A stretch of 39,591 bases of DNA from Candidatus Woesearchaeota archaeon (GCA_964372845.1 CAYJRS010000002.1:1-39591), one strand, 5' to 3'. Numbered from the stretch's first letter, positions 3,934 through 37,113 are shown. A program made the numbers and translations. Notes: generated by a model from the letters alone, not told the origin.

Positions 3934-4110
3934 TGATGAACAGCACCTATAAGTTCCCATGCATGAGCACAGTACAGTTATAGGCGTTGCCCTGCTTAAC
4001 TCCCTCGTAATCATCTGGAAGACGATTAATCCGAGATCGAACTTCCCGAAATTTCCCGAAGAAAATTTTCTACGAGATCGGGTGGAACCAGGGCACTATG
4101 GCCGTCCATC
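3934..4110 (-). rRNA. 5S rRNA with a 63-nt insertion replacing the helix III tip / loop C
   Basis: On the minus strand, helix I pairs GATGGACGGC with GCTGTTCATC (10 bp, 2 GU). Helix II pairs GCCCTG with CAGGGC. Also present: GGGAGTTAAGC, GTACTG, CATGGGAAC, and helix CCTATAA/TTATAGG. About 176 nt versus about 120 nt normally. GC is well above the surroundings. Confidence 0.7.
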
Positions 4111-4479: not shown

Positions 4480-5154
4480 TCAAGATTTTCCTTTTTCTTT
4501 GAAACTATAATAACTGTCTCTGCCAATTATCACATGATCCAAAACAGGAATATCCAAACCTTCTCCTGCTTTCATTAAGATTTTTGTAACTTCTATGTCT
4601 TGCTGCGAGGGGGTTGAATTCCCTCTAGGATGATTATGCACTAATATTATTGAATCTGAGCTCTCCTTAATTGCTTCTTTGAAAATCTCTCTTGGATGCA
4701 CTAAAGTTGAGTTTAATATGCCGATGCTGATCTTCTTTACAGTTATTACTTCTCTATTAGTATTTAATAAAACAGCGAATAAAACCTCTTTTTTGTAATC
4801 TTTTACCTTATCTGAAAGCATATTATAAATATCTCTTGCTGATGTAATTGGTTTTTTATTATAACCGCCCATCTTTAATGTGTTGTATCTTTTGCTTAAT
4901 TCAATGAAACTGAGGATTTTTAATGCTGCTGCTGTGTCATTTCTGCATTCTTTTTTTAATTCTTGAAAACTTAGTTCTTCTAATTTGTTCAGGTTGTATT
5001 TTTTCAATAATCTGTTTGCTAGGGTTATAACACTTTCTTCTTTTGTTTTTCCTAAAATTATTTCCAACAATTCAGAATCAGATAGGTTTTCAGCACCCTC
5101 TTTTATTAATCTGCTTCCTGGACGGTCATACCAAGGCATGTTTAGGATACCCAT
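4480..5154 (-). CDS. radC: RadC-family JAB/MPN domain protein
   Basis: HNHPRGNSTPSQQD JAMM motif and an N-terminal helix-hairpin-helix-like region; 224 aa. Confidence 0.9.
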   Translation of the reverse strand: MGILNMPWYDRPGSRLIKEGAENLSDSELLEIILGKTKEESVITLANRLLKKYNLNKLEELSFQELKKECRNDTAAALKILSFIELSKRYNTLKMGGYNKKPITSARDIYNMLSDKVKDYKKEVLFAVLLNTNREVITVKKISIGILNSTLVHPREIFKEAIKESSDSIILVHNHPRGNSTPSQQDIEVTKILMKAGEGLDIPVLDHVIIGRDSYYSFKEKGKS

Positions 5155-6368: not shown

Positions 6369-7099
6369 ATCTCTTTCTTGATATCCTCTTTTTGAATGCC
6401 TAATTCTGTAATTAAAATGTCTTCCATGTCTTTCACAAATTCAGGCGGTCCGCATAGATAGAAATCTGTTTCTGCTAACAATAGGCCGGAATTTTCAATC
6501 ATTTCCTTTTTAATCCTGCCAGTTGCTCCCTTCCAATTTTCTCGAGTTAGAGTAAATTCATGGCTTATATTTTTTGAAGTTTTTGAAATTAATTCTATCT
6601 CCTTTCTCCAGAGTATTTCATTTTCAGTTTTGTTTGAGTAGATAATATGGGTTCTTAATGGAAGTTTTTTTTCATGAACATATCTTAATATTGACATCAA
6701 TGGAGAGATGCCTGAGCCTGCTCCAATAAGCATTATATTCTTCTTAGTATTTTTTTCATCAAAGTAAAATTTCCCGAAAGGTCCGGTTACAGCAATTAAT
6801 TCTCCTGATTGCAAGTGATTTACAAAATATTCTGAAACAAAACCATCTTCTGTTGGCTTCACTGTAATTTCCAAATAATTCTGTTGGAGCGGTGCTGATG
6901 ACATTGAAAAGGGGCGCTTTTGAATTTTATTTTTCCCGTCTCTAACTTTAAATCTCCCAGTTTTTTCCAGATCAAGCTCCATCATTGCAAACTGACCTGG
7001 CTGAAAATTAAATGGTTTTCCATCCAAGCTTATACGGACTGCTTTCGCTGTAGGAGAAAGTTTAATCAATTCTGAAACCTTTAGTATGTAATTTGGCAT
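6359..7099 (-). CDS. Ferredoxin-NADP reductase-like FAD/NAD(P)-binding oxidoreductase
   Basis: RPFSMSS (RxYS-type FAD motif) and the GAGSGISP nucleotide-binding motif; 246 aa. Confidence 0.85.
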   Translation of the reverse strand: MPNYILKVSELIKLSPTAKAVRISLDGKPFNFQPGQFAMMELDLEKTGRFKVRDGKNKIQKRPFSMSSAPLQQNYLEITVKPTEDGFVSEYFVNHLQSGELIAVTGPFGKFYFDEKNTKKNIMLIGAGSGISPLMSILRYVHEKKLPLRTHIIYSNKTENEILWRKEIELISKTSKNISHEFTLTRENWKGATGRIKKEMIENSGLLLAETDFYLCGPPEFVKDMEDILITELGIQKEDIKKEIYN

Positions 7100-7139
7100 G
7101 ATATTTTTTGAGTATAGAGAAACTATTTTTAAGCTTTTC

Positions 7140-8852
7140 TTAGTGTTCTGAAAGTCTGTAATATAAAACTTGAATCATAAGTTCGTGCTGTAATGGGTTG
7201 TTCATCATGGATTCCATGTTTGTTTTTAATACGTCTTCTATAATTCTTTTATAGTGTTTATTTTTTTCATATTTGTTTAGCTTGTATAATGCAAGGAGCA
7301 TCATCGATGTCCCTGATGGGATAACACTATCTTGCGTCGTTGGAATTTTGAGGTAAAGTTTCTCGTGAAGCTTTGAAGTAAATGAAAACTCTCCTTTATC
7401 CTTGTAGAATAATTTTAGTGTTGTCTCTGCTAGATTATTAGCTTCCTTAAGATATTTTTTATTTTTTGATGCCTCGTATATGTCTAATAATGCATTCGCA
7501 AAAAATGAATAATCCTCTAGAAAGCCTGCTAAATTTTTCTTTCCATAAATTCTAAGAAGTTTTTCTCTATTTAAGCAATCCTTTAATATTTTTTCTGTTA
7601 TCTGCTCTGCTATTTCCAATGCATCTTTATTTTGAAAAGTTCTGCTGTATGCTGCTAGCGCTGAAATGACTAATGCATTCCAAGAGACAATTATTTTTGT
7701 GTCTGTTGCAGGGGACCCTCTTTTGTTTCTGTAAATTAACAGAGATTTCTTGTCTTGCTCGATTTTTCTTTTTTCATCTTCTGTAAGATTATCACTCATT
7801 ACGTGCAAAATGTTTTTTCCTTCATAATTTCCTTGCTTTGTGACGTTGAAGTATTTTATGAAGAGCTCAGGATCTTTTGTATTTTGCTTAACTTCATCGT
7901 ATGTAAATAGATAAAACTTTCCCTCTTCGCCTTCAGAATCTGCATCCTGTCCTGAGTAAAAACCGTTTTCTGATAGCAGGTAATTTTTAAGATAATTATA
8001 TATTCCATCAGCTTTTTCTTTAAAATAAATATCTTTAGTTTTAACATAATTCTTCGCATAGGCAATTAATAGCAATGCATTGTCATAAAGAGTTTTTTCA
8101 AAATGTGGAATCAGCCAAAGTTCATCAGTTGAATACCTGGAGAAGCCTCCTGCTAAATGATCATAAATTCCTCCATTGCCGATTTTCTTTAATGTATGAG
8201 ATACTTTATCGATGTGCTTTTTCTGTTCAATATTAAATAACAAAGAAAGGGTTATAGGAAATTTTGGTGCCCCCGTAAATCCACCATTCTCATCATCATA
8301 GTAGTGCTCAAACAATTCATTGAAATTACTGATAGGCTCGTATGAAAGCTCTCTAGGCTTTGGTTGTTTTTTTTCAAATAAAAATTTCCTGTTTAGATTT
8401 GCTTCAGAATCAAACTGCTTCTTAATCTGCTTAAGCAATGAAAGAAAAGAGGGCATATTATATCTTTCCTCTTTTGGAAAATAAGTTCCTGCAAAAAATG
8501 GTTTCAAGTCTGGAAATAAAAAGATATTCAGAGGCCATCCACCTGATCCTGTTGTATTTATTGCAAACTGCATATACGCTGCATCAATATCCGGCCTTTC
8601 TTCCCTATCAACTTTTATTGAAATAAAATATTTATTTAAAAAAGATGCCGTTTCTTCATCTTCAAAGGATTCTTTTTCCATCACGTGACACCAATGGCAG
8701 GTTGAATACCCAATTGAAAGGAATATCGACTTATTTTCTCTTTTTGATTTTTCCAGCGCTTCTTTACCCCAAGGATACCAGTTTACAGGATTATATGCAT
8801 GCTGTAGCAAATATGGAGACGTTTCTTTGATCAATTTATTTGGATTCTTCAT
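7140..8852 (-). CDS. Thioredoxin-domain protein, DUF255 / YyaL family
   Basis: N-terminal [13 protein letters not shown] motif and a long alpha-toroid-like C-terminal region; 570 aa. Confidence 0.9.
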
Positions 8853-11352: not shown

Positions 11353-12291
11353 TTATTTTTTTATTATTTTCTTTAATGTGTTGTATTCTTTCATAAATAA
11401 TTCTAAGGTTGGCTTTAGATCTTGTCTTTTCTGGTATGCCTGCAGTGAATTATAATACCCTATTCTGTTTTTAAAATTGATGTTTATTGGCGGCAGATTG
11501 TGCTTTATTAATATGTTATTAAGTAAAATTCTTCCTACTCTGCCATTTCCATCTCTAAACGGGTGAATGTTTTCAAATTGGTTATGAACAACAGCAGCTA
11601 AGACTAAAGCAGGGTATTTATTTTTATTTTTCTCATACCATTCAATCAATTCTTTTAATAAATAATTAATCCTTGCTTGTGATGCTCCTTCGTGAACAAC
11701 AACCCCTTTGCTATCAATCACAGCTACTTCTTCTCCTTTCTTTCTTAGCTTTCCTGCAAAAGGTTTAGAGTTCTTGAAAATAATTTTATGAATTTCTTTG
11801 ATTAGTTCAATTGAAATATGTTCTTTTGTTTTTCTTATAAATGCTATTGCTTCATTTACTCCATATGCCTCAGCAATATCCTCTTTTGACTTGTCAGGCC
11901 ATTTGTCTCTTTCTAATATATCTTTTACTTCAATTTCATTTAGTTTGCTTCCTTCTATTGCATTTGTATTATAAGTAAACAGCTCAGAGAAGACTTTCCA
12001 TTGCCCTTCTGAAAGACGAGGGATTCTTATAGGTATTTCTTTTTCAAGCCTTTCTGCGAATTTTATTTCGTCTTTTGAGAGCTCAAATTTCAAAGGATCT
12101 TTTATCACATTATATCTATATATTTCTTCTAGAATCAGCTTTTCAGCAATCTGCTTTCTTTCTTTTAATTTTTCCGGCTTTAAATCCTGACCTAGATATT
12201 TCCTGAACTTATGGACTTTACTGCCTTCCCTAAGTGAGTGAGAGAGATAATACTTTATTTTGCCTTTTGATTTTCTTTTTTCTATGTGCAT
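11353..12291 (-). CDS. Fic-family protein (AMPylase-type motif)
   Basis: HPFRDGNGRVGR matches HxFx(D/E)GNGRxxR. Confidence 0.9.
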   Translation of the reverse strand: MHIEKRKSKGKIKYYLSHSLREGSKVHKFRKYLGQDLKPEKLKERKQIAEKLILEEIYRYNVIKDPLKFELSKDEIKFAERLEKEIPIRIPRLSEGQWKVFSELFTYNTNAIEGSKLNEIEVKDILERDKWPDKSKEDIAEAYGVNEAIAFIRKTKEHISIELIKEIHKIIFKNSKPFAGKLRKKGEEVAVIDSKGVVVHEGASQARINYLLKELIEWYEKNKNKYPALVLAAVVHNQFENIHPFRDGNGRVGRILLNNILIKHNLPPININFKNRIGYYNSLQAYQKRQDLKPTLELFMKEYNTLKKIIKK

Positions 12292-12426: not shown

Positions 12427-13245
12427 ATGCAAACAATAAAGCTTGCTTCTGGATATGAAATGCCTGTACTAGGACTAGGTACTTGGCAGTTAACAGGAAG
12501 AAGATGCAAGGAAGCTGTGAAAAAAGCAGTTGAGTTAGGATATAGACATATTGATACTGCTTGGATTTATGATAATCAGGAAGATGTTGGAAATGCAATT
12601 AAAGAATCTTGGATTAAAAGAGAAAAATTATTTATAACATCAAAAGTTTGGACAGACAACTTAAGGTATGAAGATGTGTTGGAGCAGTGCAAGGAAACAT
12701 TAAATCAACTAAAGTTAGATTATCTTGACTTGTATCTGATACACTGGCCTAATAGCGATGTGCCTTTGGAAGAAACGTTTAGGGCATTTAAAAAATTAGT
12801 GAATGATAAAAAAGTTAGAAGCATTGGTGTTAGCAATTTTAATATAGCCAGAGTTAGAGAGGCAAAGGAAAAAAGTGAAATTCCAGTTTCTGTGAATCAA
12901 GTTGAATATCATCCTTACCTGAACCAGGAATCTTTATTAGAGGAATGCAAGAAAAATAAAATTACTTTAACAGCTTACTCTCCCTTGGCAAGAGGAAACA
13001 TCATTAATGATAAAGTTTTGAAAGCTGCTGCAGAGAAATATAATAAAACTACTTCTCAAGTTGCATTGCGCTGGCTACTGCAGAAAAACATTATTGCAAT
13101 TCCAAAAGCAAGCTCTGAAGATCATTTAAAAGAAAATTTGAATATTTTTGATTTTGAATTGGAAAAAGAAGAAATAGAAAAAATAAATAAAATAAACATT
13201 AGGAAAAGATTGGTAAATCCTGGGTTTAGTGAGTTTGAAGATTAG
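12427..13245 (+). CDS. Aldo/keto reductase
   Basis: GYRHIDTA, LIHWP, NQVEYHP; 272 aa. Confidence 0.9.
   Translation: MQTIKLASGYEMPVLGLGTWQLTGRRCKEAVKKAVELGYRHIDTAWIYDNQEDVGNAIKESWIKREKLFITSKVWTDNLRYEDVLEQCKETLNQLKLDYLDLYLIHWPNSDVPLEETFRAFKKLVNDKKVRSIGVSNFNIARVREAKEKSEIPVSVNQVEYHPYLNQESLLEECKKNKITLTAYSPLARGNIINDKVLKAAAEKYNKTTSQVALRWLLQKNIIAIPKASSEDHLKENLNIFDFELEKEEIEKINKINIRKRLVNPGFSEFED
13210..13245 (+). repeat. Aldo-keto reductase 3' end, copy 1 (in-gene)
   Basis: Encodes LVNPGFSEFED-stop. Imperfectly repeated at 13834-13869 (26/36 nt; 7/11 residues identical). Confidence 0.7.
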
Positions 13246-13280
13246 AAAGATTTAATAATTAGCCGCACTATTCTCATAAC

Positions 13281-13469
13281 ATGAAAAGTTTAGAAAAAAT
13301 CAAAAATAAATATGTAGGGAAATGGATTGCTTTATCCGGCGGAAAGGTTGTAGCGGTTAATTCCGACTACCATGAGTTGCATAAAGATTTAAAGGAAAAG
13401 AATTTTAGAGATATTTACGTTGTTTATTCTCCAAGTCCTGAAGATAAAAAATATGAAACCATGCTGTAA
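13281..13469 (+). CDS. DUF5678-like small protein
   Basis: KYVGKWIALSGGKVVAVNSDYHELHKDL. The stop is directly followed by the next ATG (TAAATG). Confidence 0.6.
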   Translation: MKSLEKIKNKYVGKWIALSGGKVVAVNSDYHELHKDLKEKNFRDIYVVYSPSPEDKKYETML

Positions 13470-13841
13470 ATGAGGTATTACAATAAATTAAAAGTTAAAG
13501 CTATTTTTTCTAAGAGAAACTTGAGATATGCTGAAGATGCTATTATTGATACAGGCTCTTCAGTTACAATTATTCCTCCTGAAATAGCGGATTATCTAGA
13601 ATTTGAACCGGATAAAGAAAACCCTTCAATGAAAATAGTTACTGGTTCTGGAATATTAGAAATTCCAAGAAAAATAGCAACAACAATGAAAATTAATGAT
13701 TTGGTGTTTACAGATTTTCCTGTTGGAGTGCATGAGTTACCTAAAGAAGTTGAGACTAAAGTTCTAATAGGGATGGACATTATTAATCAAATAAAACTAA
13801 TAGTTAATGGGAAGAATAGAGAGTTTGAAATCATTAGTTAA
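13470..13841 (+). CDS. Retropepsin-like (clan AA) aspartic protease
   Basis: AIIDTGSSVTIIP (D-T/S-G active site) and the later LIGMDIINQ flap/dimer region; 123 aa. Confidence 0.75.
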   Translation: MRYYNKLKVKAIFSKRNLRYAEDAIIDTGSSVTIIPPEIADYLEFEPDKENPSMKIVTGSGILEIPRKIATTMKINDLVFTDFPVGVHELPKEVETKVLIGMDIINQIKLIVNGKNREFEIIS

Positions 13842-13869
13842 TCCTGAATTTAGTGAACTCGAAAATTGA
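13834..13869 (+). repeat. Displaced copy of the aldo-keto reductase 3' end (out of frame with the protease gene)
   Basis: Reads LVNPEFSELEN-stop in its own frame, versus LVNPGFSEFED-stop at 13210-13245. Confidence 0.7.
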
Positions 13870-13870
13870 G

Positions 13871-13919
13871 TTTTAACCGCTTCGCTGATGGACAACGAAG
13901 TTTTCCATGAGCCTTTCCT
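13871..13919 (-). repeat. Intergenic hairpin-repeat family, copy A
   Basis: TTTTAACCGCTTCGCTG-ATGGACAAC-GAA-GTTTTCCAT-GAGCCTTTCC. It starts 1 nt after the stop of the displaced reductase end. Confidence 0.75.
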
Positions 13920-13980
13920 TTTACAACATAATATTCATAACATATAAAAAAATAAATACTAAAAATACCTGAATAGGTTT

Positions 13981-20555: not shown

Positions 20556-20879
20556 ATGAAAGTCCTATTTATCTGCAACCAAAATCAGCATAGAAGTAAA
20601 ACAGCTGAAGAAATTTTTAGAGGTAAATTCGAAACTAAATCTGCCGGCCTATTTAATGAGAAACCAGTTAATGAAAAACAATTGTCATGGGCTGATATAA
20701 TTATTGTCATGGAAGACCATCAAAGAGCAGAGATAGCAAAAAGATTTCCTAAAATTTATATGCAAAAAAGGATACTTTCATTAAACGTGCCTGATCTCTA
20801 CAGTTATGATCAACAAGAATTAATTGATTTGCTTAAAAAACGCTTTAATCATTTAGCCATTCCTCAAATTGTTTCTTAG
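20556..20879 (+). CDS. Low-molecular-weight phosphotyrosine-phosphatase-like protein (short form)
   Basis: N-terminal VLFICNQNQHRSK matches the C-x5-R-S P-loop. Confidence 0.75.
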   Translation: MKVLFICNQNQHRSKTAEEIFRGKFETKSAGLFNEKPVNEKQLSWADIIIVMEDHQRAEIAKRFPKIYMQKRILSLNVPDLYSYDQQELIDLLKKRFNHLAIPQIVS

Positions 20880-21027
20880 CCTCTTCTTTTGATTTAAAAA
20901 TTTTAGTTTCTGCTACCGATAAATTGGGATATCTCCTTGTAACTTTATATTTCTTTTCTTCATGATCTATCATTTCTATAATAGAGATTTCCCATTTCCT
21001 TGTCGGATGTTTTTTAATCTCTTTCAT
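20845..21027 (-). CDS. Hypothetical 60-aa protein, last gene of the PIN operon
   Basis: The start overlaps the upstream stop (TAATG). Converges on and overlaps the phosphatase-like gene by 35 nt. Confidence 0.5.
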   Translation of the reverse strand: MKEIKKHPTRKWEISIIEMIDHEEKKYKVTRRYPNLSVAETKIFKSKEEAKKQFEEWLND

Positions 21028-21137
21028 TACTTACTAATCTGCTTTCCTCTGAATCTGTCATGACAACTGCATGGGCAGTAAACATTTCCAATTGGTAGAT
21101 GCCCGCATTTTTTACAGTGTTTTATTCCATCTTCCAT
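21027..21137 (-). CDS. Possible 36-aa zinc-binding peptide
   Basis: MEDGIKHCKKCGHLPIGNVYCPCSCHDRFRGKQISK. GGAGAGGG lies upstream. The ATG lies inside the 31-bp cysS-end repeat. Below the ORF-track cutoff. Confidence 0.4.
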   Translation of the reverse strand: MEDGIKHCKKCGHLPIGNVYCPCSCHDRFRGKQISK

Positions 21138-21148
21138 TTCACACCTTT
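21118..21148 (-). repeat. Perfect 31-bp copy of the cysS 3' end (distal copy)
   Basis: TGTTTTATTCCATCTTCCATTTCACACCTTT is identical to 23115-23145. Confidence 0.9.
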
Positions 21149-21169
21149 TTATCCCTCTCCTCAAATTTT

Positions 21170-21718
21170 TTATTTGTATTTATTCCTTTTGCTTTCTTGT
21201 AGTTTTAGAAATTGCTCTGGTTTAATAATTTCTATACCAAGATCAAGATTTTTAATTTTATTATACAAGGCATCATCTCTTGTTACAAAATACCTGCATC
21301 CACTTTTTATAACTTGAAATATTAAAATAGCATCTATGAATTCAACACCTTTCTTCGCCAAATTAGTTATAAACTCCGTATCTAACTCGTGAGTTTTCTT
21401 AGAAGCGATCTCTTTTAAATCACCTATAATATTTTCTATACCCTTTAATTCATCTTCACTTAATCTAATATTTCTCTTAGCCTCCAAAAATTCTCTTGTA
21501 TGGAATCCCAAGTCGAATAATTTTAATTCTAGAAATAATTCCTGCAACACAGACCTATATTCTAATAAAGTCCGATCTGAAATAACTAAATCTATCTTGT
21601 CTGTTAAGTAAAGTTCTGCAATTGATAAAGCCCTCTTTAGTCTTGGTGAAATGTGCTCTTCTTCTTTCCTCTCTGCCAATGTTAAGTCCACCAAAATATT
21701 TGTATCTAATGCTATCAT
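21170..21718 (-). CDS. PIN-domain nuclease with an internal insertion
   Basis: MIALDTNILV (first acidic residue), FIDAIL and VTRDD (later acidic residues). At 182 aa it is longer than a typical VapC. Confidence 0.7.
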   Translation of the reverse strand: MIALDTNILVDLTLAERKEEEHISPRLKRALSIAELYLTDKIDLVISDRTLLEYRSVLQELFLELKLFDLGFHTREFLEAKRNIRLSEDELKGIENIIGDLKEIASKKTHELDTEFITNLAKKGVEFIDAILIFQVIKSGCRYFVTRDDALYNKIKNLDLGIEIIKPEQFLKLQESKRNKYK

Positions 21719-21828
21719 TTTTTAAAATATCTTTTTTTAATAATTCTTCTTGCTTGACCTATCCATTTTCCTTTTCTTTTTTTAGTCTTAGTTGGTTTCT
21801 TTTTCGGTCTTGGTTTTTCTTTTGCCAT
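21715..21828 (-). CDS. Possible 37-aa highly basic peptide upstream of the PIN gene
   Basis: MAKEKPRPKKKPTKTKKRKGKWIGQARRIIKKRYFKK. AGGAGGTG lies 6 nt upstream. ATGA overlap with the PIN start. Confidence 0.45.
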   Translation of the reverse strand: MAKEKPRPKKKPTKTKKRKGKWIGQARRIIKKRYFKK

Positions 21829-21956
21829 TTTTTACACCTCCTTATGGTAATGTATTTTGGGCTAAAATACTATTTAAACAATTCGATTCTTATTTAAAAA
21901 AACTAATTACCCAGAAAATAAATCGATGGAGAACCTAATTCTTTTTCAGGATTTTT

Positions 21957-22053
21957 TTGATTTCTTTTTTCTAAAGTAGGGATGAAAGGGGGATAATCCC
22001 TTCAAGGAAAGGCTCATGGAAAACGTAGTTGTCCATCAGCTTAAGCGGTTAAA
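21957..22053 (+). repeat. Intergenic hairpin-repeat family, copy B
   Basis: GATTTCTTTTTTCTAAAG ... GGAAAGGCTC-ATGGAAAAC-GTA-GTTGTCCAT-CAGCTTAAGCGGTTAAA. It ends 1 nt from the HEPN stop codon. Confidence 0.75.
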
Positions 22054-22080
22054 TTTATTCTATCTTCCATTTCACGCCCT
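22054..22080 (-). repeat. Degenerate copy (24/27) of the cysS 3' end, forming the C-terminus of the HEPN ORF
   Basis: Encodes EGVKWKIE-stop versus cysS KGVKWKME-stop. Confidence 0.75.
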
Positions 22081-22510
22081 CTTTTGTCAATTGTTCAAAT
22101 TTTTCTCTTATTTCTGGTAAGGCTTGTTTTGCAAATTCTAAAGCCTCTGCACATTTTTCTGATGATATCTCTTCTGCCTTATAGACTGAACTGTTTCTAA
22201 GCATTCTGTAGCTATCAATCACATTTACTTCTCCATCATTTAACATTTTATACCCTTTAAGAAACGCTATTAAAGCTTCATGAGAGTAAGGCTTATACCC
22301 TTTTATTTCCATCAAGGATTGTGAAGCTTCTCTTAATGATTCATAGATATCTTCAAAGATAATGGATGATTCCGATTTGGTTATTTTTTCATTCATTACC
22401 CTTCTAAGCCTGACTTCAGCTTTTTGTAACAATGATCTTGCCATACCAAGATTAGGAATTGATTTTCTTACAAGATTTTCATTCACATAATATTCAAATG
22501 GCTTGATCAT
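22055..22510 (-). CDS. HEPN-domain protein (partner of the upstream nucleotidyltransferase)
   Basis: All-helical 151 aa with an RMLRNSSVY region at the HEPN motif position. ATGA overlap with the upstream MNT gene. Confidence 0.8.
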   Translation of the reverse strand: MIKPFEYYVNENLVRKSIPNLGMARSLLQKAEVRLRRVMNEKITKSESSIIFEDIYESLREASQSLMEIKGYKPYSHEALIAFLKGYKMLNDGEVNVIDSYRMLRNSSVYKAEEISSEKCAEALEFAKQALPEIREKFEQLTKEGVKWKIE

Positions 22511-23034
22511 TTTATTATTTCCATAAATCCTTCTAAAACTATGCCGTTAGCAAGTGAATTTTTAAATTCCTTTTCTGCCTTATCAAGGTTAATTAAATAA
22601 ATATTAATTTTTCTTGCCAGTTTATTCTCAAATTTCTTAAGGTCCGGAGTTTCTTTTTTGGAGGTGATTATTGCTATGTCTATGTCGCTTTTTTCTGTGT
22701 CTGTGCCCTCTGAGTAACTACCAAATAGTATAATTGCCCTAGGCATTTCGTAATGCTTTTTGATAAAATCTATAAAACCGATATCATATAAAGAATAAGT
22801 GTTGTAAAGCCTTTTAATTAGCAAGAATTTTCCGTTAAAATCAGGCCTAACTTCTTCTATATGCTTTACTTTTTTTGTGGTCAGCAGTTTTTCTTTTTTC
22901 AGCTTTTTTACGATTTTTATTATGCCTGTACTTGACAGCCCTGTTAATCTTGAAATCTCTCTTATATGGAATGTCCTATATGGAAACTTAAAAAATAATT
23001 CCATGACTTTAAGATTGTTATCTTTTGTGATCAT
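22507..23034 (-). CDS. Minimal nucleotidyltransferase (MNT) with N-terminal winged-helix domain
   Basis: ILFGSYSEGTDTEKSDIDIAII (GS ... DxD). Confidence 0.85.
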   Translation of the reverse strand: MITKDNNLKVMELFFKFPYRTFHIREISRLTGLSSTGIIKIVKKLKKEKLLTTKKVKHIEEVRPDFNGKFLLIKRLYNTYSLYDIGFIDFIKKHYEMPRAIILFGSYSEGTDTEKSDIDIAIITSKKETPDLKKFENKLARKINIYLINLDKAEKEFKNSLANGIVLEGFMEIIK

Positions 23035-23114
23035 ATGAGAACTATAGTTATCAATTGATATTTAAAGTTTGCGGTTAACTAAAACATAGCTAATAGTAAC
23101 TGCCATTTATTCAT

Positions 23115-23145
23115 TGTTTTATTCCATCTTCCATTTCACACCTTT
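23115..23145 (-). repeat. cysS 3' end, proximal (in-gene) copy of the 31-bp repeat
   Basis: Covers the last 8 codons, the stop and 4 nt downstream of cysS. Identical to 21118-21148. Confidence 0.9.
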
Positions 23146-24471
23146 CTTTGTGTCTTCTAAAATAATTCCTTTCTCTTTTAATTTTTCCCTGATCTTATCT
23201 GCTTTCCTGAAATCTTTTTTCCTTCTTGCCCTTTCTCTTTCCTGGATTAGTTTTTTAATTTCAGCAGATAGTTTTTTTTCTTTTATTGTTAATATATTGA
23301 ATACTTTATCAAATTCTAACATTAACTGATAACTTTTCTTTCCTCCCCCTTTCTTGTTGACTTTGTTCATGAAATCAAATATAACTGCTAATGCCTGCGG
23401 TGTATTGAAATCGTCATTCATTGCTTCTACGAATTTTTCTTTTGTTTCTTTTATTAACTGTAAATCGTCTTTTTCTTTGCTGCTCTTTAAATCTAAAACA
23501 AAATTGTTCAGCCTTTCCAGTGCATTCTTGCTTTGCTCTAATATGTCGAATGAAAAACTAATTGGAGTTCTGTAGTGATTTGAAGCAAAAAAATATCTTA
23601 TAACTTTTCCGTTGTATCTTCGTAGAGCCTCCTTTATAGTTATGAAATTCCCTTTTGATTTGCTCATTTTTTCCTTGTCGGTATTTAAGAAAGCTGTATG
23701 GAGCCAATATTTAACTAAAGGTTTTTTGCCTGAAATCGATTCCATCTGAGCTATTTCTGCTTCATGATGCGGGAATATCAAATCAACTGCGCCTCCATGA
23801 ATATCATATTGCTGTCCGAGTTCTTTTTCTGTTATTGCAGTGTCTTCGATATGCCATCCTGGCCTGCCATCTCCCAATTTCCATTTCCAGCTTGGATCTC
23901 CTGGCTTTGAAAACTTCCATAAACAGAAATCTCCTTTGTTTCTTTTTTCCTGATTTTCGTCTATCCTTGAAACTGCGTCTTCAGCCTCTTCGTGTTTTCT
24001 TTTAGCTAACTTTCCATAATCTTTAAATTTAGTCAGATCAAAATAATAACCATCTGAAGTTTTATATGCGCAATCTCTTTCTAACAGTCTCTGCACTTGG
24101 CTTTGAATCTCTTTTATGTAATCTGTTGCCCTTGCATATCTGCTTATTGAGTCTACTCCTAGTTCCTTCATATCTCTCAGATATTCATTTTCATATTTTC
24201 TTGCTATCTCTTTCCATGAAGTTTTTTCTTCTCTTGCTTTTTGTATTATTTTATCATCTATATCTGTTACATTCTGCAGATAGAAAACCTTGTATTTAAG
24301 ATAGTGGAGATATTTTACTATTATATCGAACTGTATGTAGGTTTTTGCATGACCTATATGGGCAAGATTATAAGGAGTTAAACCGCAAACAAACAGATTT
24401 ACTTTTTTCCCTTTAATTGGCTTGAAAACTTCCTTTTTTCTTGTTAAGGTGTTGTAAAGATGTATTTGCAT
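23119..24471 (-). CDS. cysS: Cysteinyl-tRNA synthetase
   Basis: HIGHAKTY and KMSKSKGN class I signatures; 450 aa. Confidence 0.95.
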   Translation of the reverse strand: MQIHLYNTLTRKKEVFKPIKGKKVNLFVCGLTPYNLAHIGHAKTYIQFDIIVKYLHYLKYKVFYLQNVTDIDDKIIQKAREEKTSWKEIARKYENEYLRDMKELGVDSISRYARATDYIKEIQSQVQRLLERDCAYKTSDGYYFDLTKFKDYGKLAKRKHEEAEDAVSRIDENQEKRNKGDFCLWKFSKPGDPSWKWKLGDGRPGWHIEDTAITEKELGQQYDIHGGAVDLIFPHHEAEIAQMESISGKKPLVKYWLHTAFLNTDKEKMSKSKGNFITIKEALRRYNGKVIRYFFASNHYRTPISFSFDILEQSKNALERLNNFVLDLKSSKEKDDLQLIKETKEKFVEAMNDDFNTPQALAVIFDFMNKVNKKGGGKKSYQLMLEFDKVFNILTIKEKKLSAEIKKLIQERERARRKKDFRKADKIREKLKEKGIILEDTKKGVKWKME

Positions 24472-25467: not shown

Positions 25468-25478
25468 ATTGAAAGAGA

Positions 25479-25557
25479 AGGACACCTGCGGTTTCCATTT
25501 GCCTTCCCCTCACACTTTCTTTTTTGGAAAAAGAAAGTGTGCAGCGAAGCGGTTGAA
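25479..25557 (-). repeat. Intergenic hairpin-repeat family, copy D (rearranged, with a 14-bp perfect hairpin)
   Basis: AAGGACAC-CTGCG-GTTTCCAT-TTGCCTTCCCC, then CACACTTTCTTTTT-TGG-AAAAAGAAAGTGTG, then CAGCGAAGCGGTTGAAAA. Confidence 0.65.
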
Positions 25558-25634
25558 AATCAAAATGCTTAAAAATGCTTAAAATAAGGCAAGATAGAGG
25601 TGAAAGCCTCAGACTTGTTCTGGGTTTTGTAATC

Positions 25635-29935: not shown

Positions 29936-30216
29936 TGGCATGGGAAATTGGTGAGGTCTTGTTTTTAATTGGACAGCTCTTAGCATACATCATCGGGATA
30001 ATTGTGATAATACAGATTCTTAGAAGTTTATTTGGTGGGACATGGGAAATAGAAAATACTATTTTAACTATTGTTGTATTTAATTTGACTATAACTTTTA
30101 GCCTTGGTGGATATTTGTTGAATTCAAATAGAAGCTTAAATAGCAAAATTGCAAACATCGACAAAAAAATTCATGGCCATATCGAGTGGCACAGAGGAAA
30201 AGATAGCAGGAGATAG
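29935..30216 (+). CDS. Membrane protein, unknown function
   Basis: Two hydrophobic helices. The stop lies 1 nt before the polX ATG. Confidence 0.55.
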   Translation: MAWEIGEVLFLIGQLLAYIIGIIVIIQILRSLFGGTWEIENTILTIVVFNLTITFSLGGYLLNSNRSLNSKIANIDKKIHGHIEWHRGKDSRR

Positions 30217-30217
30217 C

Positions 30218-31894
30218 ATGATCAATAAGGAAATTGCTAAGATATTTTATGAAATTTCTGAAATATTAAAATTAAAAAATGTGCAATGGAAACCTCAAGC
30301 CTATAACAAAGCAGCTCGTGTGATAGATGATTTGGAAAAAGATTTGAAAGAAATTTATGATGAAAAAGGATTAAAGGGATTGGATGAAATATCTGGAGTT
30401 GGAAAGGGAATTGCAAAAAAAATTGAGGAATATATAAAAACTGGAAAAATAAAAGAGTATCAGAAATTAAAAAAAAGTATTCCTAAAGGCCTGATTGAGA
30501 TGATGGATATTACCGGTATTGGTCCGAAGAAGGCTCAATTTTTGTATAAAGAATTAAAGATAAAAAGCATTAAAGATTTAGAGAGGGCTGTTAGAAAACA
30601 CAAGATAAAAGAACTGGAGAGATTTGGGGAGAAAAGCGAGAAAGATATTAGAGAAGAAATTGAATTTTTCAAGAAAAGAAGTAAGAATAGAATGCTTCTT
30701 GGAGATGCTTTGGATCTTTCTGAAGACGTAGTAAAAAAATTAAAAGCAAAAAAAATTTTGGTCTGTGGCTCGATAAGGAGGATGTATGAAACCATTGGCG
30801 ACATAGACATTTTAGCTGTTGCCGATAAAAACATCGTCGAGGATTTCTGCAAACTTGCCGATAGAATTTTGGCTAAAGGTGAAGGAAAAGCAAGCATAAT
30901 AATCGGAGACAGACAAATAGATTTGAGAGTTGTTCCTAAAGAGGATTTCTGGAGTGGAGTTCATTATTTTACCGGAAGCAAGGATCATAGTGTTGAGCTC
31001 AGGAAAATAGCTATAAGAAAAGGGATGAAATTAAGCGAGTATGGATTGTTTAAAGGAGAAAGAAGAATTGCTGGAAAAAGCGAGGAAGAAATTTATCAAA
31101 AATTAGGAATGCAATATATCCCTCCAGAGTTGAGAGAAAATAAAGGTGAGATTGAAGCTGCGATTAAGAAAAAAATTCCTAAATTAATTAATTACAACGA
31201 CATAAAAGGGGATTTACATATGCATACTAAACACAGTGATGGAAACAATAGCATTTTAGAGATGGTTAGTGCTGCCAAAAAAATCGGATACAGTTATATT
31301 GGGATTAGTGATCATTCTCGAACAAGAAAGATAGCAGGAGGATTAACCGAAGATGAGCTGATGAAAGAGATCAAAGAGGTTAGAAAAATAAAAATTTCTG
31401 GGATTAAAGTTTTGATTGGAAGCGAAGTCGATATTTTAGGGGATGGAAGCCTGGATTACAATGATAAAATCTTGAAAAAGCTTGACTATGCAATTGGTTC
31501 AATACATTCTGGATTCAAAGGGGATGTAACTAAAAGAATTTTAAAGGCTATGGAAAATAAATACATGAATATTCTTGCTCATCCTACTGGAAGATTAATT
31601 CAGGAAAGGAAAGGATATGAAATAAAGTTTGATGAAGTATTAAGAGTTGCTAAGGAGACTAAAACTTTATTGGAGATAAACGCTCATCCTTCTAGATTGG
31701 ATTTAAGAGACGAGATGATAAAGGCTGCTGTTGAGAATGGAGACAAATTAATAATTGGAACTGATGCGCATAACGTCGATGGTTTAAGACATATGAAGCT
31801 GGGAATCGGACAGGCTAGGAGAGGATGGGCAGGAAAAGAAGATATTGCAAATACTAGAAGCTGGAATGAACTAAGAAAAATAATTGGGAGGTAG
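30218..31894 (+). CDS. polX: Family X DNA polymerase with C-terminal PHP domain
   Basis: HhH repeats (GVGKGIAKKI, GIGPKKA), catalytic GSIRRMYETIGDIDIL, and PHP HMHTKHSDG ... GISDHS. ATG 30218 is preferred over 30149, which overlaps the upstream gene. Confidence 0.9.
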   Translation: MINKEIAKIFYEISEILKLKNVQWKPQAYNKAARVIDDLEKDLKEIYDEKGLKGLDEISGVGKGIAKKIEEYIKTGKIKEYQKLKKSIPKGLIEMMDITGIGPKKAQFLYKELKIKSIKDLERAVRKHKIKELERFGEKSEKDIREEIEFFKKRSKNRMLLGDALDLSEDVVKKLKAKKILVCGSIRRMYETIGDIDILAVADKNIVEDFCKLADRILAKGEGKASIIIGDRQIDLRVVPKEDFWSGVHYFTGSKDHSVELRKIAIRKGMKLSEYGLFKGERRIAGKSEEEIYQKLGMQYIPPELRENKGEIEAAIKKKIPKLINYNDIKGDLHMHTKHSDGNNSILEMVSAAKKIGYSYIGISDHSRTRKIAGGLTEDELMKEIKEVRKIKISGIKVLIGSEVDILGDGSLDYNDKILKKLDYAIGSIHSGFKGDVTKRILKAMENKYMNILAHPTGRLIQERKGYEIKFDEVLRVAKETKTLLEINAHPSRLDLRDEMIKAAVENGDKLIIGTDAHNVDGLRHMKLGIGQARRGWAGKEDIANTRSWNELRKIIGR

Positions 31895-33588: not shown

Positions 33589-33891
33589 ATGAAAAAGCAG
33601 ACTCTCACTTCAAGGAAGATAATAAATACGATAGAACGGCATAGAAATGATCTGGCTAAATTTGATGTTAAGAAGATTGGCTTATTCGGATCGTTTTCTA
33701 AACATCCAGATAAAAGTAGTGATATAGACTTCCTTGTAGAATTTAAGAAACCCTCATTTGATAATTATATGGGATTAAAATTTAAACTAGAAAAGTTATT
33801 TAATAGAAAAGTTGATTTGGTTATAGAAAAAGAGTTAAAACCGGCATTGAAGTATGTAAAAAGGGAAGCTATTTATGCCAAAGGATTATAG
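33589..33891 (+). CDS. Nucleotidyltransferase MntA-like (antitoxin of the HepT pair)
   Basis: [22 protein letters not shown]. Confidence 0.85.
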
Positions 33892-34225
33892 GGTTTACTT
33901 GGATGATATTTTAGATTCTATTAAAAATGTTGAAGATTATTCTAAGAAGATCACCTCTATAAAAATGCTTGAAAAAGATAAACTGAGAAAAGATGCCATA
34001 ATTAGAAATCTGGAAATTATTGGTGAGGCAGTTAAAAGTCTGCCTTCAGAAATTAGAGAGAAGTATCCTGATGTTGAATGGAAGAAGATTGCTGGTTTTA
34101 GAGGTATATTAATTCATGAATATTCTGGGATTAGTTTGGAGATTGTATGGGATGTAATAAAAAACAAGATTCCAGAACTTAAAATTACGATAAATAGGAT
34201 TTTGAAAGAATATAAAGGGCTATGA
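33875..34225 (+). CDS. HepT-like DUF86/HEPN toxin
   Basis: RNLEIIGEA and FRGILIHEY (R-x4-H). Overlaps the MNT gene by 17 nt. Confidence 0.85.
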
Positions 34226-36984: not shown

Positions 36985-37058
36985 GATTTCTTTTTCTAAA
37001 AGAAAATGTGAGGGAAAGGTGGATGGAAAACGTAGTTGTCCATGAGAGTGAAGCGAAT
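36985..37058 (+). repeat. Intergenic hairpin-repeat family, copy C
   Basis: TTTCTTTT-TCT-AAAAGAAA hairpin, TGTGAGGGAAAGGTGG, ATGGAAAAC-GTA-GTTGTCCAT, GAGAGTGAAGCGAATAA. Confidence 0.7.
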
Positions 37059-37113
37059 AAAAACTAGTTTTTGAAAGATAAGATTTATAAAGAATGTATT
37101 CTATTATATAATT

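Follow-up and report, generated by a model that had tools for sequence, protein, structure and literature searches.

Directly downstream of cysS, the cysteine–tRNA ligase gene, a Candidatus Woesearchaeota archaeon (GCA_964372845.1 CAYJRS010000002.1:1-39591) carries a 1,966-bp block enclosed by perfect 31-bp direct repeats of the cysS end. The block holds two gene units: unit 1 is a pair of a winged helix-turn-helix (wHTH) MNT nucleotidyltransferase and a HEPN protein, and unit 2 combines a hairpin element, a basic peptide and a PIN-domain protein. Our preferred reading, which we hold with about even confidence, is that the region forms a small variable islet within the 16-nt overlap of cysS with a 36-aa zinc-ribbon open reading frame (ORF), Zn36, of a Woesearchaeota-type DPANN archaeon, and that two promoter-to-stop operons were added there successively by an integrase-independent entry that duplicates the host gene tail. 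The window, by which we mean the whole 39,591-nt stretch analysed, makes about 40 kb of the genome visible. CysS places the organism in Woesearchaeota/Nanoarchaeia (DPANN), with 72% identity to the best species-representative genome. Genomes of DPANN archaea are tiny and densely coding, contain overlapping genes and encode few recognisable mobile-element enzymes; strains nevertheless vary in gene content, and the routes by which they gain accessory genes are poorly understood.

All relevant genes at the site (cysS, wHTH-MNT, HEPN, the 37-aa basic ORF, PIN, Zn36 and a 60-aa ORF) lie on the minus strand. The features are given below in the direction of transcription; numbers beginning with L denote related loci and contigs.

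23119..24471 (-): cysS, the host gene; TIGR00435 482 bits, PF01406 E=1.4e-107
23115..23145 (-): R1, proximal perfect 31-bp repeat; exact match, 0 expected by chance
23078..23114 (-): filler between R1 and the cassette; the first ~11 nt (ATGAATAAAT..) are common to L105, the remainder is window-specific
23043..23077 (-): cassette left end, promoter/operator-like AACCGCAAACTTTAAATATCAATTGATAACTATAG (TATA-like box and palindromes); also upstream of MNT in L105, L111, L093, L099 and L096
22507..23034 (-): wHTH-MNT nucleotidyltransferase (antitoxin-type), first gene; PF18765 E=5.4e-12, PF01909 E=2.2e-9
22055..22510 (-): HEPN protein, second gene; AlphaFold2, Foldseek, PF05168 in the family, PADLOC PDC-M05B
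22054..22087 (-): R2, degenerate middle copy of the cysS tail; 28/34 identity with 23118-23151
22002..22055 (-): hairpin element copy B, left end of unit 2; nhmmer E=1.6e-16, begins directly after R2
21715..21828 (-): basic37, a 37-aa Lys/Arg-rich ORF; 4-nt overlap with the PIN start, GGAGGTG in front
21170..21718 (-): PIN182, a toxin-type PIN-domain protein of 182 aa; PF01850 25.8 bits against a cut-off of 23.6
21118..21148 (-): R3, distal perfect 31-bp repeat, exact match; holds the Zn36 start codon
21027..21137 (-): Zn36, 36-aa zinc-ribbon ORF (CxxC...CxCxC); ATG at 21137 from R3, kept in five lineages
20845..21027 (-): 60-aa ORF after Zn36, from the gene list

The window contains two exact copies of the 31-mer TGTTTTATTCCATCTTCCATTTCACACCTTT, at 21118-21148 and 23115-23145 (shuffle expectation 0.00), and no third copy was found across the window with up to three mismatches tolerated. 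R1 covers the final eight cysS codons (KGVKWKME), the stop codon and 4 nt past it. Because each unit is bracketed by a copy of this overlap sequence (R), cysS keeps its last eight codons and stop, and Zn36 keeps its start codon; both genes are intact, with the target-gene 3' end included in the direct repeats R1, R2 and R3. The middle copy, R2, has an alignment score of 21.5 (shuffles 11.7 ± 1.2) and encodes the final EGVKWKIE and stop of the 151-aa HEPN ORF (22055-22510). In relatives, a C-terminal ...GVKWK.. or ...GV+WK.. ending is normal for CysS, which indicates that HEPN took its ending from cysS. When all ORFs of the block were scanned with Pfam, NCBIfam and PADLOC, no integration or transfer genes came up. 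This layout agrees with the initial annotation, which had described a block between two perfect 31-bp repeats, the first of them made up of the cysS end, a degenerate third copy that closes the HEPN ORF with hairpin-repeat copy B directly behind it, and a distal copy that lends its ATG to a 36-aa zinc-binding ORF. Its gene assignments (wHTH-MNT, HEPN, PIN and 37-aa basic ORF) also proved correct, as judged by the ORF list and domain matches and, for HEPN, by a structural model and Foldseek.

Three Logan assemblies (k=31), independent of one another, match the window at 99.95-100% identity, and each breaks exactly at R: base 30 of R is the last one of the cysS contig, base 2 the first one of the downstream contig, and the block contig measures 2,026 bp (30 + 1,966 + 30). 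Breaks at precisely this point indicate a true 31-bp repeat. The k=31 graph topology (A-R, R-B-R, R-C) does not differ between an integrated block and a circle accompanied by an empty site, and the block might on this ground be an assembly artefact, that is, a free circular element or another strain's block that shares the 31-mer with an empty-site chromosome and was threaded in by the assembler. We regard this as highly improbable: the 41.5-kb NCBI contig spans both junctions, R2 within the block records a past integration at cysS, and independent assemblies of a diverged relative (L105, L106 and, from other samples, L107-L110) show the MNT/HEPN unit between non-identical repeats, with unambiguous junctions.

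The cysS/Zn36 site in relatives

Relatives with 78-80% identical CysS, drawn from a large protein collection and representing four lineages, have a single R after cysS (L112-L116, L117, L118). These loci hold no cassettes and share the downstream Fe-S/SufC/NifU/NifS/SufBD genes of the window. In them Zn36 starts 15 nt before the cysS end, giving the 16-nt overlap, as seen in the junctions MEERIKPCSKCGHLPAGNIYCPCSCHDRFRGKQIKL (L112) and AAAGGTGTGAAATGGAAGATGAAATAAAACCATGTAAAAAATGCGGA (L118), and the Zn36 orthologues of L112, L117 and L118 are 76-82% identical. Joining the left half of R1 to the right half of R3 rebuilds exactly the single-copy junction of L112, L117 and L118. Hence, the block was inserted into the gene overlap, and both genes stay complete thanks to the 31-bp duplication.

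The nearest HEPN relative (73% amino-acid identity) lies on the Hainich groundwater contigs L105/L106, likewise downstream of cysS. The order there is cysS with R1', the cassette promoter, an ORF with LAGLIDADG_3 and HTH domains, MNT, HEPN, and R2' leading directly into Zn36; past Zn36, L105 continues with orf60', PIN149 on the opposite strand and LMWP. Compared with the window, MNT and HEPN are 79% identical over 981 nt and R2'-Zn36 is 80% identical to R3-Zn36, R2 of the window is the positional counterpart of R2', and R1' and R2' agree with each other at 23 of 24 positions. L105 equals the window arrangement minus unit 2 (hairpin B, basic37, PIN182 and one R copy) and plus an endonuclease gene. 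The left-junction filler ATGAAT[A/T]AAAT is common to both, so the MNT/HEPN insertions of the window and L105 trace to one event. The 1,966-bp block as a whole is thus not one event, since its MNT/HEPN unit and left junction are shared with a lineage about 21% diverged, and its lineage-specific part is the hairpin/basic37/PIN unit only. Single-copy R differs between relatives at 2-6 of 31 positions, and the 31/31 identity of R1 and R3 therefore implies a recent event or homogenisation; within each genome, R copies share lineage-specific variants.

The site is therefore found empty (L112-L118), with the MNT/HEPN unit and a LAGLIDADG ORF (L105/L106) and with two units (the window), the polymorphism that the initial annotation had proposed to look for. 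It had also claimed insertion into the cysS terminus, with the gene end regenerated, by serial units that are each bounded by a repeat copy. All of this is upheld by the rebuilt junction and the repeat copies except the target, which is the cysS/Zn36 overlap instead of the cysS end by itself.

The cysS gene of L105 (L105 1584-3023; also in L106) is chimeric: ~30 codons at its start and ~55 at its end resemble the window, the intervening ~390 codons are only ~43% identical, and an in-frame stop codon lies near codon 33. Either a patchwork replacement or a pseudogene may explain this, and the window-like 3' end of the gene indicates that recombination does occur at this gene end. The LAGLIDADG_3 ORF of L105 (3096-3581; present also in L106) sits between the cassette promoter and the MNT start (PF14528, E=7.5e-14), and in L119 a further such ORF (6934-7719) lies 1.4 kb from a decayed cassette. 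Past Zn36, the 60-aa ORF of the window (20845-21027) is not homologous to the 59-61-aa ORFs at the same position in L105 (4688-4870), L112 (7488-7667) and L118 (7477-7662), with 23-31% identity over 13-17 residues against 66-88% among the relatives themselves, and the 149-aa PIN gene on the opposite strand is found only in L105 and L118 among these loci. These differing ORFs and the patchy PIN gene mark the stretch downstream of cysS as a small gene-replacement hot spot. Tail duplication as a common feature downstream of cysS in DPANN was rejected, given that 30 cysS loci of GTDB representatives showed neither duplication nor conserved synteny.

The MNT/HEPN cassette at other genes

In L111, an MNT/HEPN cassette that is 70.6% nucleotide-identical from promoter to HEPN end follows a gene for an ABCE1-like ABC-ATPase. 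Directly past the HEPN stop, a 35-aa ORF is a 101-nt duplicate of the ABCE1-like tail (91/101 identical; score 76, shuffles 9.7 ± 1.0). The downstream neighbour in L111 is convergent and needed no rescue, which makes the duplication a product of the insertion mechanism and not of selection alone. Judged by these two loci, insertion with tail duplication took place on more than one occasion. The cassette measures ~1 kb and its edges are constant across loci: the left one falls some 45 nt before the MNT start codon, at CGTAAACTTTA[A/T]ATATCA, and the right one is the HEPN stop codon (AAGGARTGA). In the window, inter-locus homology begins at the promoter-like left end (23043..23077), whose TATA-like box and palindromic stretch we infer to be a promoter that travels with the MNT/HEPN cassette in six loci.

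A scan for tail duplications across 1,545 ORFs in 1.12 Mb of fetched related loci gave clear cases only at MNT/HEPN cassette loci. The one other high-scoring locus, L046, was rejected as a further case: a palindromic element resembling repetitive extragenic palindromic (REP) sequences lies on both sides of cysS in this Saccharibacteria metagenome-assembled genome, and the ORF there is spurious. At the aldo-keto reductase (AKR) locus of the window (12427-13925, +), to which the initial annotation had extended the same logic, AKR (PF00248) is followed by a DUF5678 and retropepsin-like protease pair (PADLOC PDC-M08B), a 41-nt AKR tail copy (13827-13867 against 13203-13243; 31/41, 76%) and hairpin copy A. 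The layout is similar, but the tail copy scores 16 against a null maximum of 15, so that the parallel to the cysS locus is no more than marginal in the DNA. An in-frame fusion of the AKR tail copy to the protease was rejected, the protease ending natively in EFEIIS before its stop.

Entry mechanism and rival explanations

No window ORF of at least 90 aa contains an integrase, transposase, Cas1 or similar domain, and no recombinase-type domains are recorded among the precomputed Pfam matches for called genes at the relatives' loci; the earlier statement that the window lacks an integrase, a transposase and attC sites was confirmed. R has no inverted arms of at least 5 nt and no dyad symmetry, and no terminal inverted repeats were found at the aligned cassette ends. 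For a transposon, a miniature inverted-repeat transposable element (MITE) or a casposon, terminal inverted repeats and a fixed-length target duplication would be expected, whereas the duplications measure 24, 31-34 and 101 nt depending on the locus. At each locus the left junction lies 0-4 nt past the host stop codon, and the duplicated stretch reaches a variable distance upstream. The right junction of L105 has a 9-nt microhomology, AAGGAGTGA, which is the native HEPN end and also occurs within the cysS tail AAAGGAGTGAAATGG, and at the AKR locus the tail copy and the native protease gene end coincide in 11 of 15 overlapping positions. Variable repeat length and junction microhomology point away from a single site-specific recombinase, and together with the lack of terminal inverted repeats and dyad symmetry they are better accounted for by an illegitimate event with microhomology assistance than by such a recombinase or a transposase. 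A dedicated, integron-like machinery behind the recurrent cassette capture that the initial annotation suggested is not established.

We envisage that a unit would join just past the host stop codon in an integrase-independent illegitimate event (copy-choice or microhomology-assisted end-joining), and that the same event would duplicate a variable stretch of the host tail of 24-107 nt. The repeat-flanked unit could then spread to empty alleles, stack with other units or be lost through ordinary recombination across R copies or flanking genes, and its toxin-antitoxin content and essential-gene neighbourhood would favour retention. The perfect identity of R1 and R3 would mark the latest event; the diverged R2 would be the old distal repeat of the MNT/HEPN unit, in which a later 4-nt change removed the HEPN stop codon. 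In homology-facilitated illegitimate recombination and in template switching of the microhomology-mediated break-induced replication type (PMC2621351), the duplication is likewise variable, with filler at one junction, microhomology at the other and no element enzyme. Such events are usually one-off and scattered, whereas here one cassette family bears a common signature at two essential-gene 3' ends, with one of the sites serving twice. Seven kb from the locus lies the gene for a PolX-family polymerase with a PHP domain (gap-filling, end-processing type; 30149-31894, +); fill-in at staggered breaks is a conceivable way in which it could be relevant. More broadly, DPANN archaea may own an undescribed integrase-free way of acquiring toxin-antitoxin and defence operons, in which one end joins after the stop codon of an essential gene and the other 24-107 nt upstream, often at microhomology, and the tails then act as portable homology; we put this forward as a tentative and rather doubtful proposal.

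Several points weigh against an integrase-independent entry. The mechanism itself is not established and is drawn from three or four events only. Microhomology is clear only at L105, imperfect at the AKR locus and absent at L111. No flanking repeats were found at the sister-subfamily MNT/HEPN cassettes next to RNase HII genes, nor at the decayed L119 cassette (P0071 context; truncated MNT). Two units at exactly one 31-bp site, with R1 equal to R3, are equally expected of a trans-acting site-specific recombinase, and the 40 kb of visible genome leaves room for such an enzyme elsewhere. Finally, R3 matches R1 and not the adjacent R2, which simple target duplication at R2 is insufficient to explain. 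An extra step is therefore needed, be it recombination of alleles that are filled differently, gene conversion or renewed insertion of the entire composite; a trans recombinase and recombination between differently filled alleles explain the homogeneity of R copies equally well.

These points lend some credit to an explanation in which R is an attachment site and the units are integrase-less, cis-mobilizable cassettes, moved by a site-specific recombinase whose gene lies in another part of the genome, on a virus or on a plasmid, and accreted in tandem. It would account for a flanking repeat that is perfect over 31 bp, for two different units added at one sequence and each bounded by an R copy, for the empty, single-unit and double-unit states among relatives and for the resemblance of R copies within each genome, and tandem islands described at gene 3' ends have the same layout (PMC5704250, PMC3146451). 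We nevertheless consider it somewhat unlikely. The same cassette has an unrelated 101-nt repeat at the ABCE1-like gene, and one recombinase with one attachment site cannot serve both loci; no recombinase is seen in the 40 kb here or recorded at the relatives' loci, R lacks dyad symmetry, and the cassettes are bounded exactly at promoter and stop codon, with no room for remnants of a decayed element. A codon-degenerate R gave 0 matches in IMG/VR and 7 matches, by chance only, in JGI metagenomes, and no relatives of the MNT protein were found in IMG/VR, PLSDB or INPHARED. Homing offers another route, in which a free-standing LAGLIDADG enzyme cuts the empty cysS/Zn36 junction and break repair copies the occupied allele with its cassettes and repeats. 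The LAGLIDADG_3 ORFs inside the L105/L106 cassette and near the decayed L119 cassette would suit it, as would the chimeric cysS of L105, which co-conversion of the flank would yield. However, neither the window nor L111 has such an endonuclease gene, and homing makes no target duplications and could only spread a pre-existing structure; we judge it unlikely.

In integrons, an imperfect attC hairpin of 57-141 nt follows each cassette, its R''/R' cores pair at the stem base, and the cassettes are mostly promoterless. An integron-type array without integrase (cluster of attC sites lacking integron-integrases, CALIN), with the hairpin repeats as attC sites, would resemble the block in that small, co-oriented cassettes rich in toxin-antitoxin genes accumulate at one site; an imperfect hairpin follows unit 1 and the AKR-locus cassette, and archaeal integrons have been reported (PMC9668308). 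The likeness ends there, and we give this explanation next to no credence. The hairpin stem of about 9 bp has no R''/R' cores pairing at its base, the block holds a single hairpin with none at the far end of unit 2, and the hairpin is absent from L105 and L111 despite the same cassette. Moreover, the cassettes bring their own promoter-like regions, attC, attI and IntI are lacking, and the unit boundaries are duplicated host tails and not attC x attI products.

The closest known systems are cis-mobilizable elements (CIMEs) and tandem accretion at a housekeeping-gene 3' end, as at fda in Streptococcus thermophilus (ICESt1/ICESt3; PMC5704250). These, too, are integrase-less units with direct repeats that hold the target 3' end, several of them stacked at one site, with an intact target and strain-variable content. 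CIMEs, however, are decayed integrative conjugative or mobilizable elements with att sites on which a known, cognate tyrosine integrase acts, whereas the present units are ~1-kb promoter-to-stop toxin-antitoxin operons with no remnants of a larger element and no integrase seen, and at another gene the cassette is flanked by a different repeat, also of other length, with no shared att core. The Dehalococcoides ssrA islands form a tandem array downstream of an essential single-copy gene, with a ~20-bp direct repeat of the gene 3' end (PMC3146451). Some of them lack integration modules, and an ORF at the edge reads into the repeat and gains a variable C-terminus, like the HEPN protein of the window. 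They differ in size (10-30 kb), in a serine-recombinase module (dsiB) present in about half, in an RNA-gene target and in a fixed repeat length (PMC3146451). On their sequences, the present units are distinct from CIMEs and tandem islands in being minimal promoter-to-stop units with locus-dependent repeat length and junction microhomology, whose target is the overlap of two protein-coding genes in a DPANN archaeon. Elements of the IMEX type (CTX phage, gonococcal genetic island) have no recombinase of their own and exploit host Xer at dif, with direct repeats of ~28-31 bp and repeated insertion at one site. R differs in being a protein-coding gene junction without dif-like dyad symmetry, and the L111 locus uses an unrelated sequence.

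The locus provides a clean natural series (empty, one unit, two units) in which the host genes are never damaged, and the same cassette carries the same tail-duplication signature at a second essential gene. If this signature is general, it would offer a simple sequence-based route to recent gene gains in streamlined genomes and a testable model for how toxin-antitoxin and defence modules anchor next to essential genes. Should a trans recombinase be responsible, CIME-type accretion would extend to DPANN archaea, with a protein-coding gene overlap as attachment site. If the undescribed mechanism is true, it would be a functional analogue of the integron without attC or IntI, in which tail duplication keeps packed or overlapping host genes intact.

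Proteins, hairpin element and other window features

The MNT protein scores 47 bits against NCBIfam MntA, under the 60-bit cut-off, and matches PADLOC PDC-M05A with E=7e-16; in PADLOC the MNT/HEPN pair, whose genes overlap by 4 nt, falls under PDC-M05A/B, a candidate defence system. For the HEPN protein, the AlphaFold2 model (pLDDT 93.4) has top Foldseek matches that are all HEPN domains, including 2hsb, 3o10 and the type VII toxins 7ae6/7ae8 (probability 1.00), and its residues 147-151 are predicted to be disordered, as expected of appended foreign sequence. The native part stops at about 22079 (..TKE), and residues 145-151 (GVKWKIE) with the stop codon (22055-22078) come from R2. The nearest homologues end in ..KE, L105 and L111 keep this native stop, and in L105 the ending ..SKE is closed by the TGA inside GGAGTGAAATGG; in the window, four extra bases (GGCG) abolish the stop, and the ORF runs on into the tail in the cysS frame. 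As L105 and L111 retain the native end, the read-through into a cysS-type tail is secondary. The idea that all variable HEPN C-termini are captured host tails was rejected: the RNase HII-adjacent cassettes (L093-L104) have tails without an upstream counterpart, which look like ordinary fast-evolving ends.

A search for HEPN homologues found 258, and 9 of 30 sampled reached PF05168. All 30 aligned members have the motif RxLRNxxxY (Rx4Y, with Tyr in place of the His of the catalytic Rx4-6H), and the same alignment (n = 30) shows an invariant SHE triad. This family is widespread in DPANN, and its biochemical activity may not be that of HepT. The type VII HEPN/MNT system (HepT/MntA) is similar in that the MNT gene overlaps a gene for a HEPN fold, and differs in the Rx4-6H RNase motif, which the window HEPN lacks, and in MntA, for which the score is under the cut-off; PDC-M05A/B fits instead. 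Membership of unit 1 in the characterised HepT/MntA family is, on the basis of the RxLRNxxxY motif in place of Rx4-6H, not established.

In unit 2, basic37 is also called as a gene on Logan contig L002, has no family match in Pfam, NCBIfam or PADLOC and is a putative partner of the PIN protein. PIN182 has a single relative (56% identical) among 5.8 billion clusters, on an 816-bp contig. The unit resembles VapBC in encoding a toxin-type PIN-domain protein (PF01850). In VapBC the antitoxin encoded upstream has a recognisable DNA-binding fold (AbrB, RHH, PHD or similar); the ORF in that position here gives a poly-basic peptide of 37 aa without a family match. The hairpin element at the left end of the unit is a ~55-nt interspersed repeat with three full copies and one rearranged copy in the window. 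Besides copy B, nhmmer places them as follows.

13866-13922 (+): full copy
37006-37068 (-): full copy
25477-25563: rearranged or partial copy, of which 25477-25515 is the matching part

Three of the copies begin 0-10 nt past a stop codon. The flanks are conserved (TTTAACCGCTT.. and ..CCTTTCC) around an imperfect 5+3-bp hairpin (stem about 9 bp), in which AAC..GTT flanks the loop and not the stem base. The fold is weak (z-scores -0.4 to -2.5), there is no match in Rfam, and the element was not found in ~110 related loci, L105 and L111 included, so it is specific to this genome. Only one copy lies inside the block, and the distal end of unit 2 is R3, without a hairpin. On these grounds the element was rejected as part of the shared cassette and as an attC site; it may be REP/MITE-like or terminator-like.

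Elsewhere in the window, a 5S rRNA match (3935-4109, -) spans 175 nt against the 120-nt model, with about 66 nt inserted in the loop after helix III, and scores 48.2 bits, over the gathering threshold. The window is rich in further genes of toxin-antitoxin and defence type (1280-1906, 4480-5154, 11353-12291 and 33589-34225), among them a HipA-like kinase, RadC, a Fic protein (PADLOC PDC-S04/SoFic) and a second, canonical MNT/HepT pair (PF01909 + PF01934).

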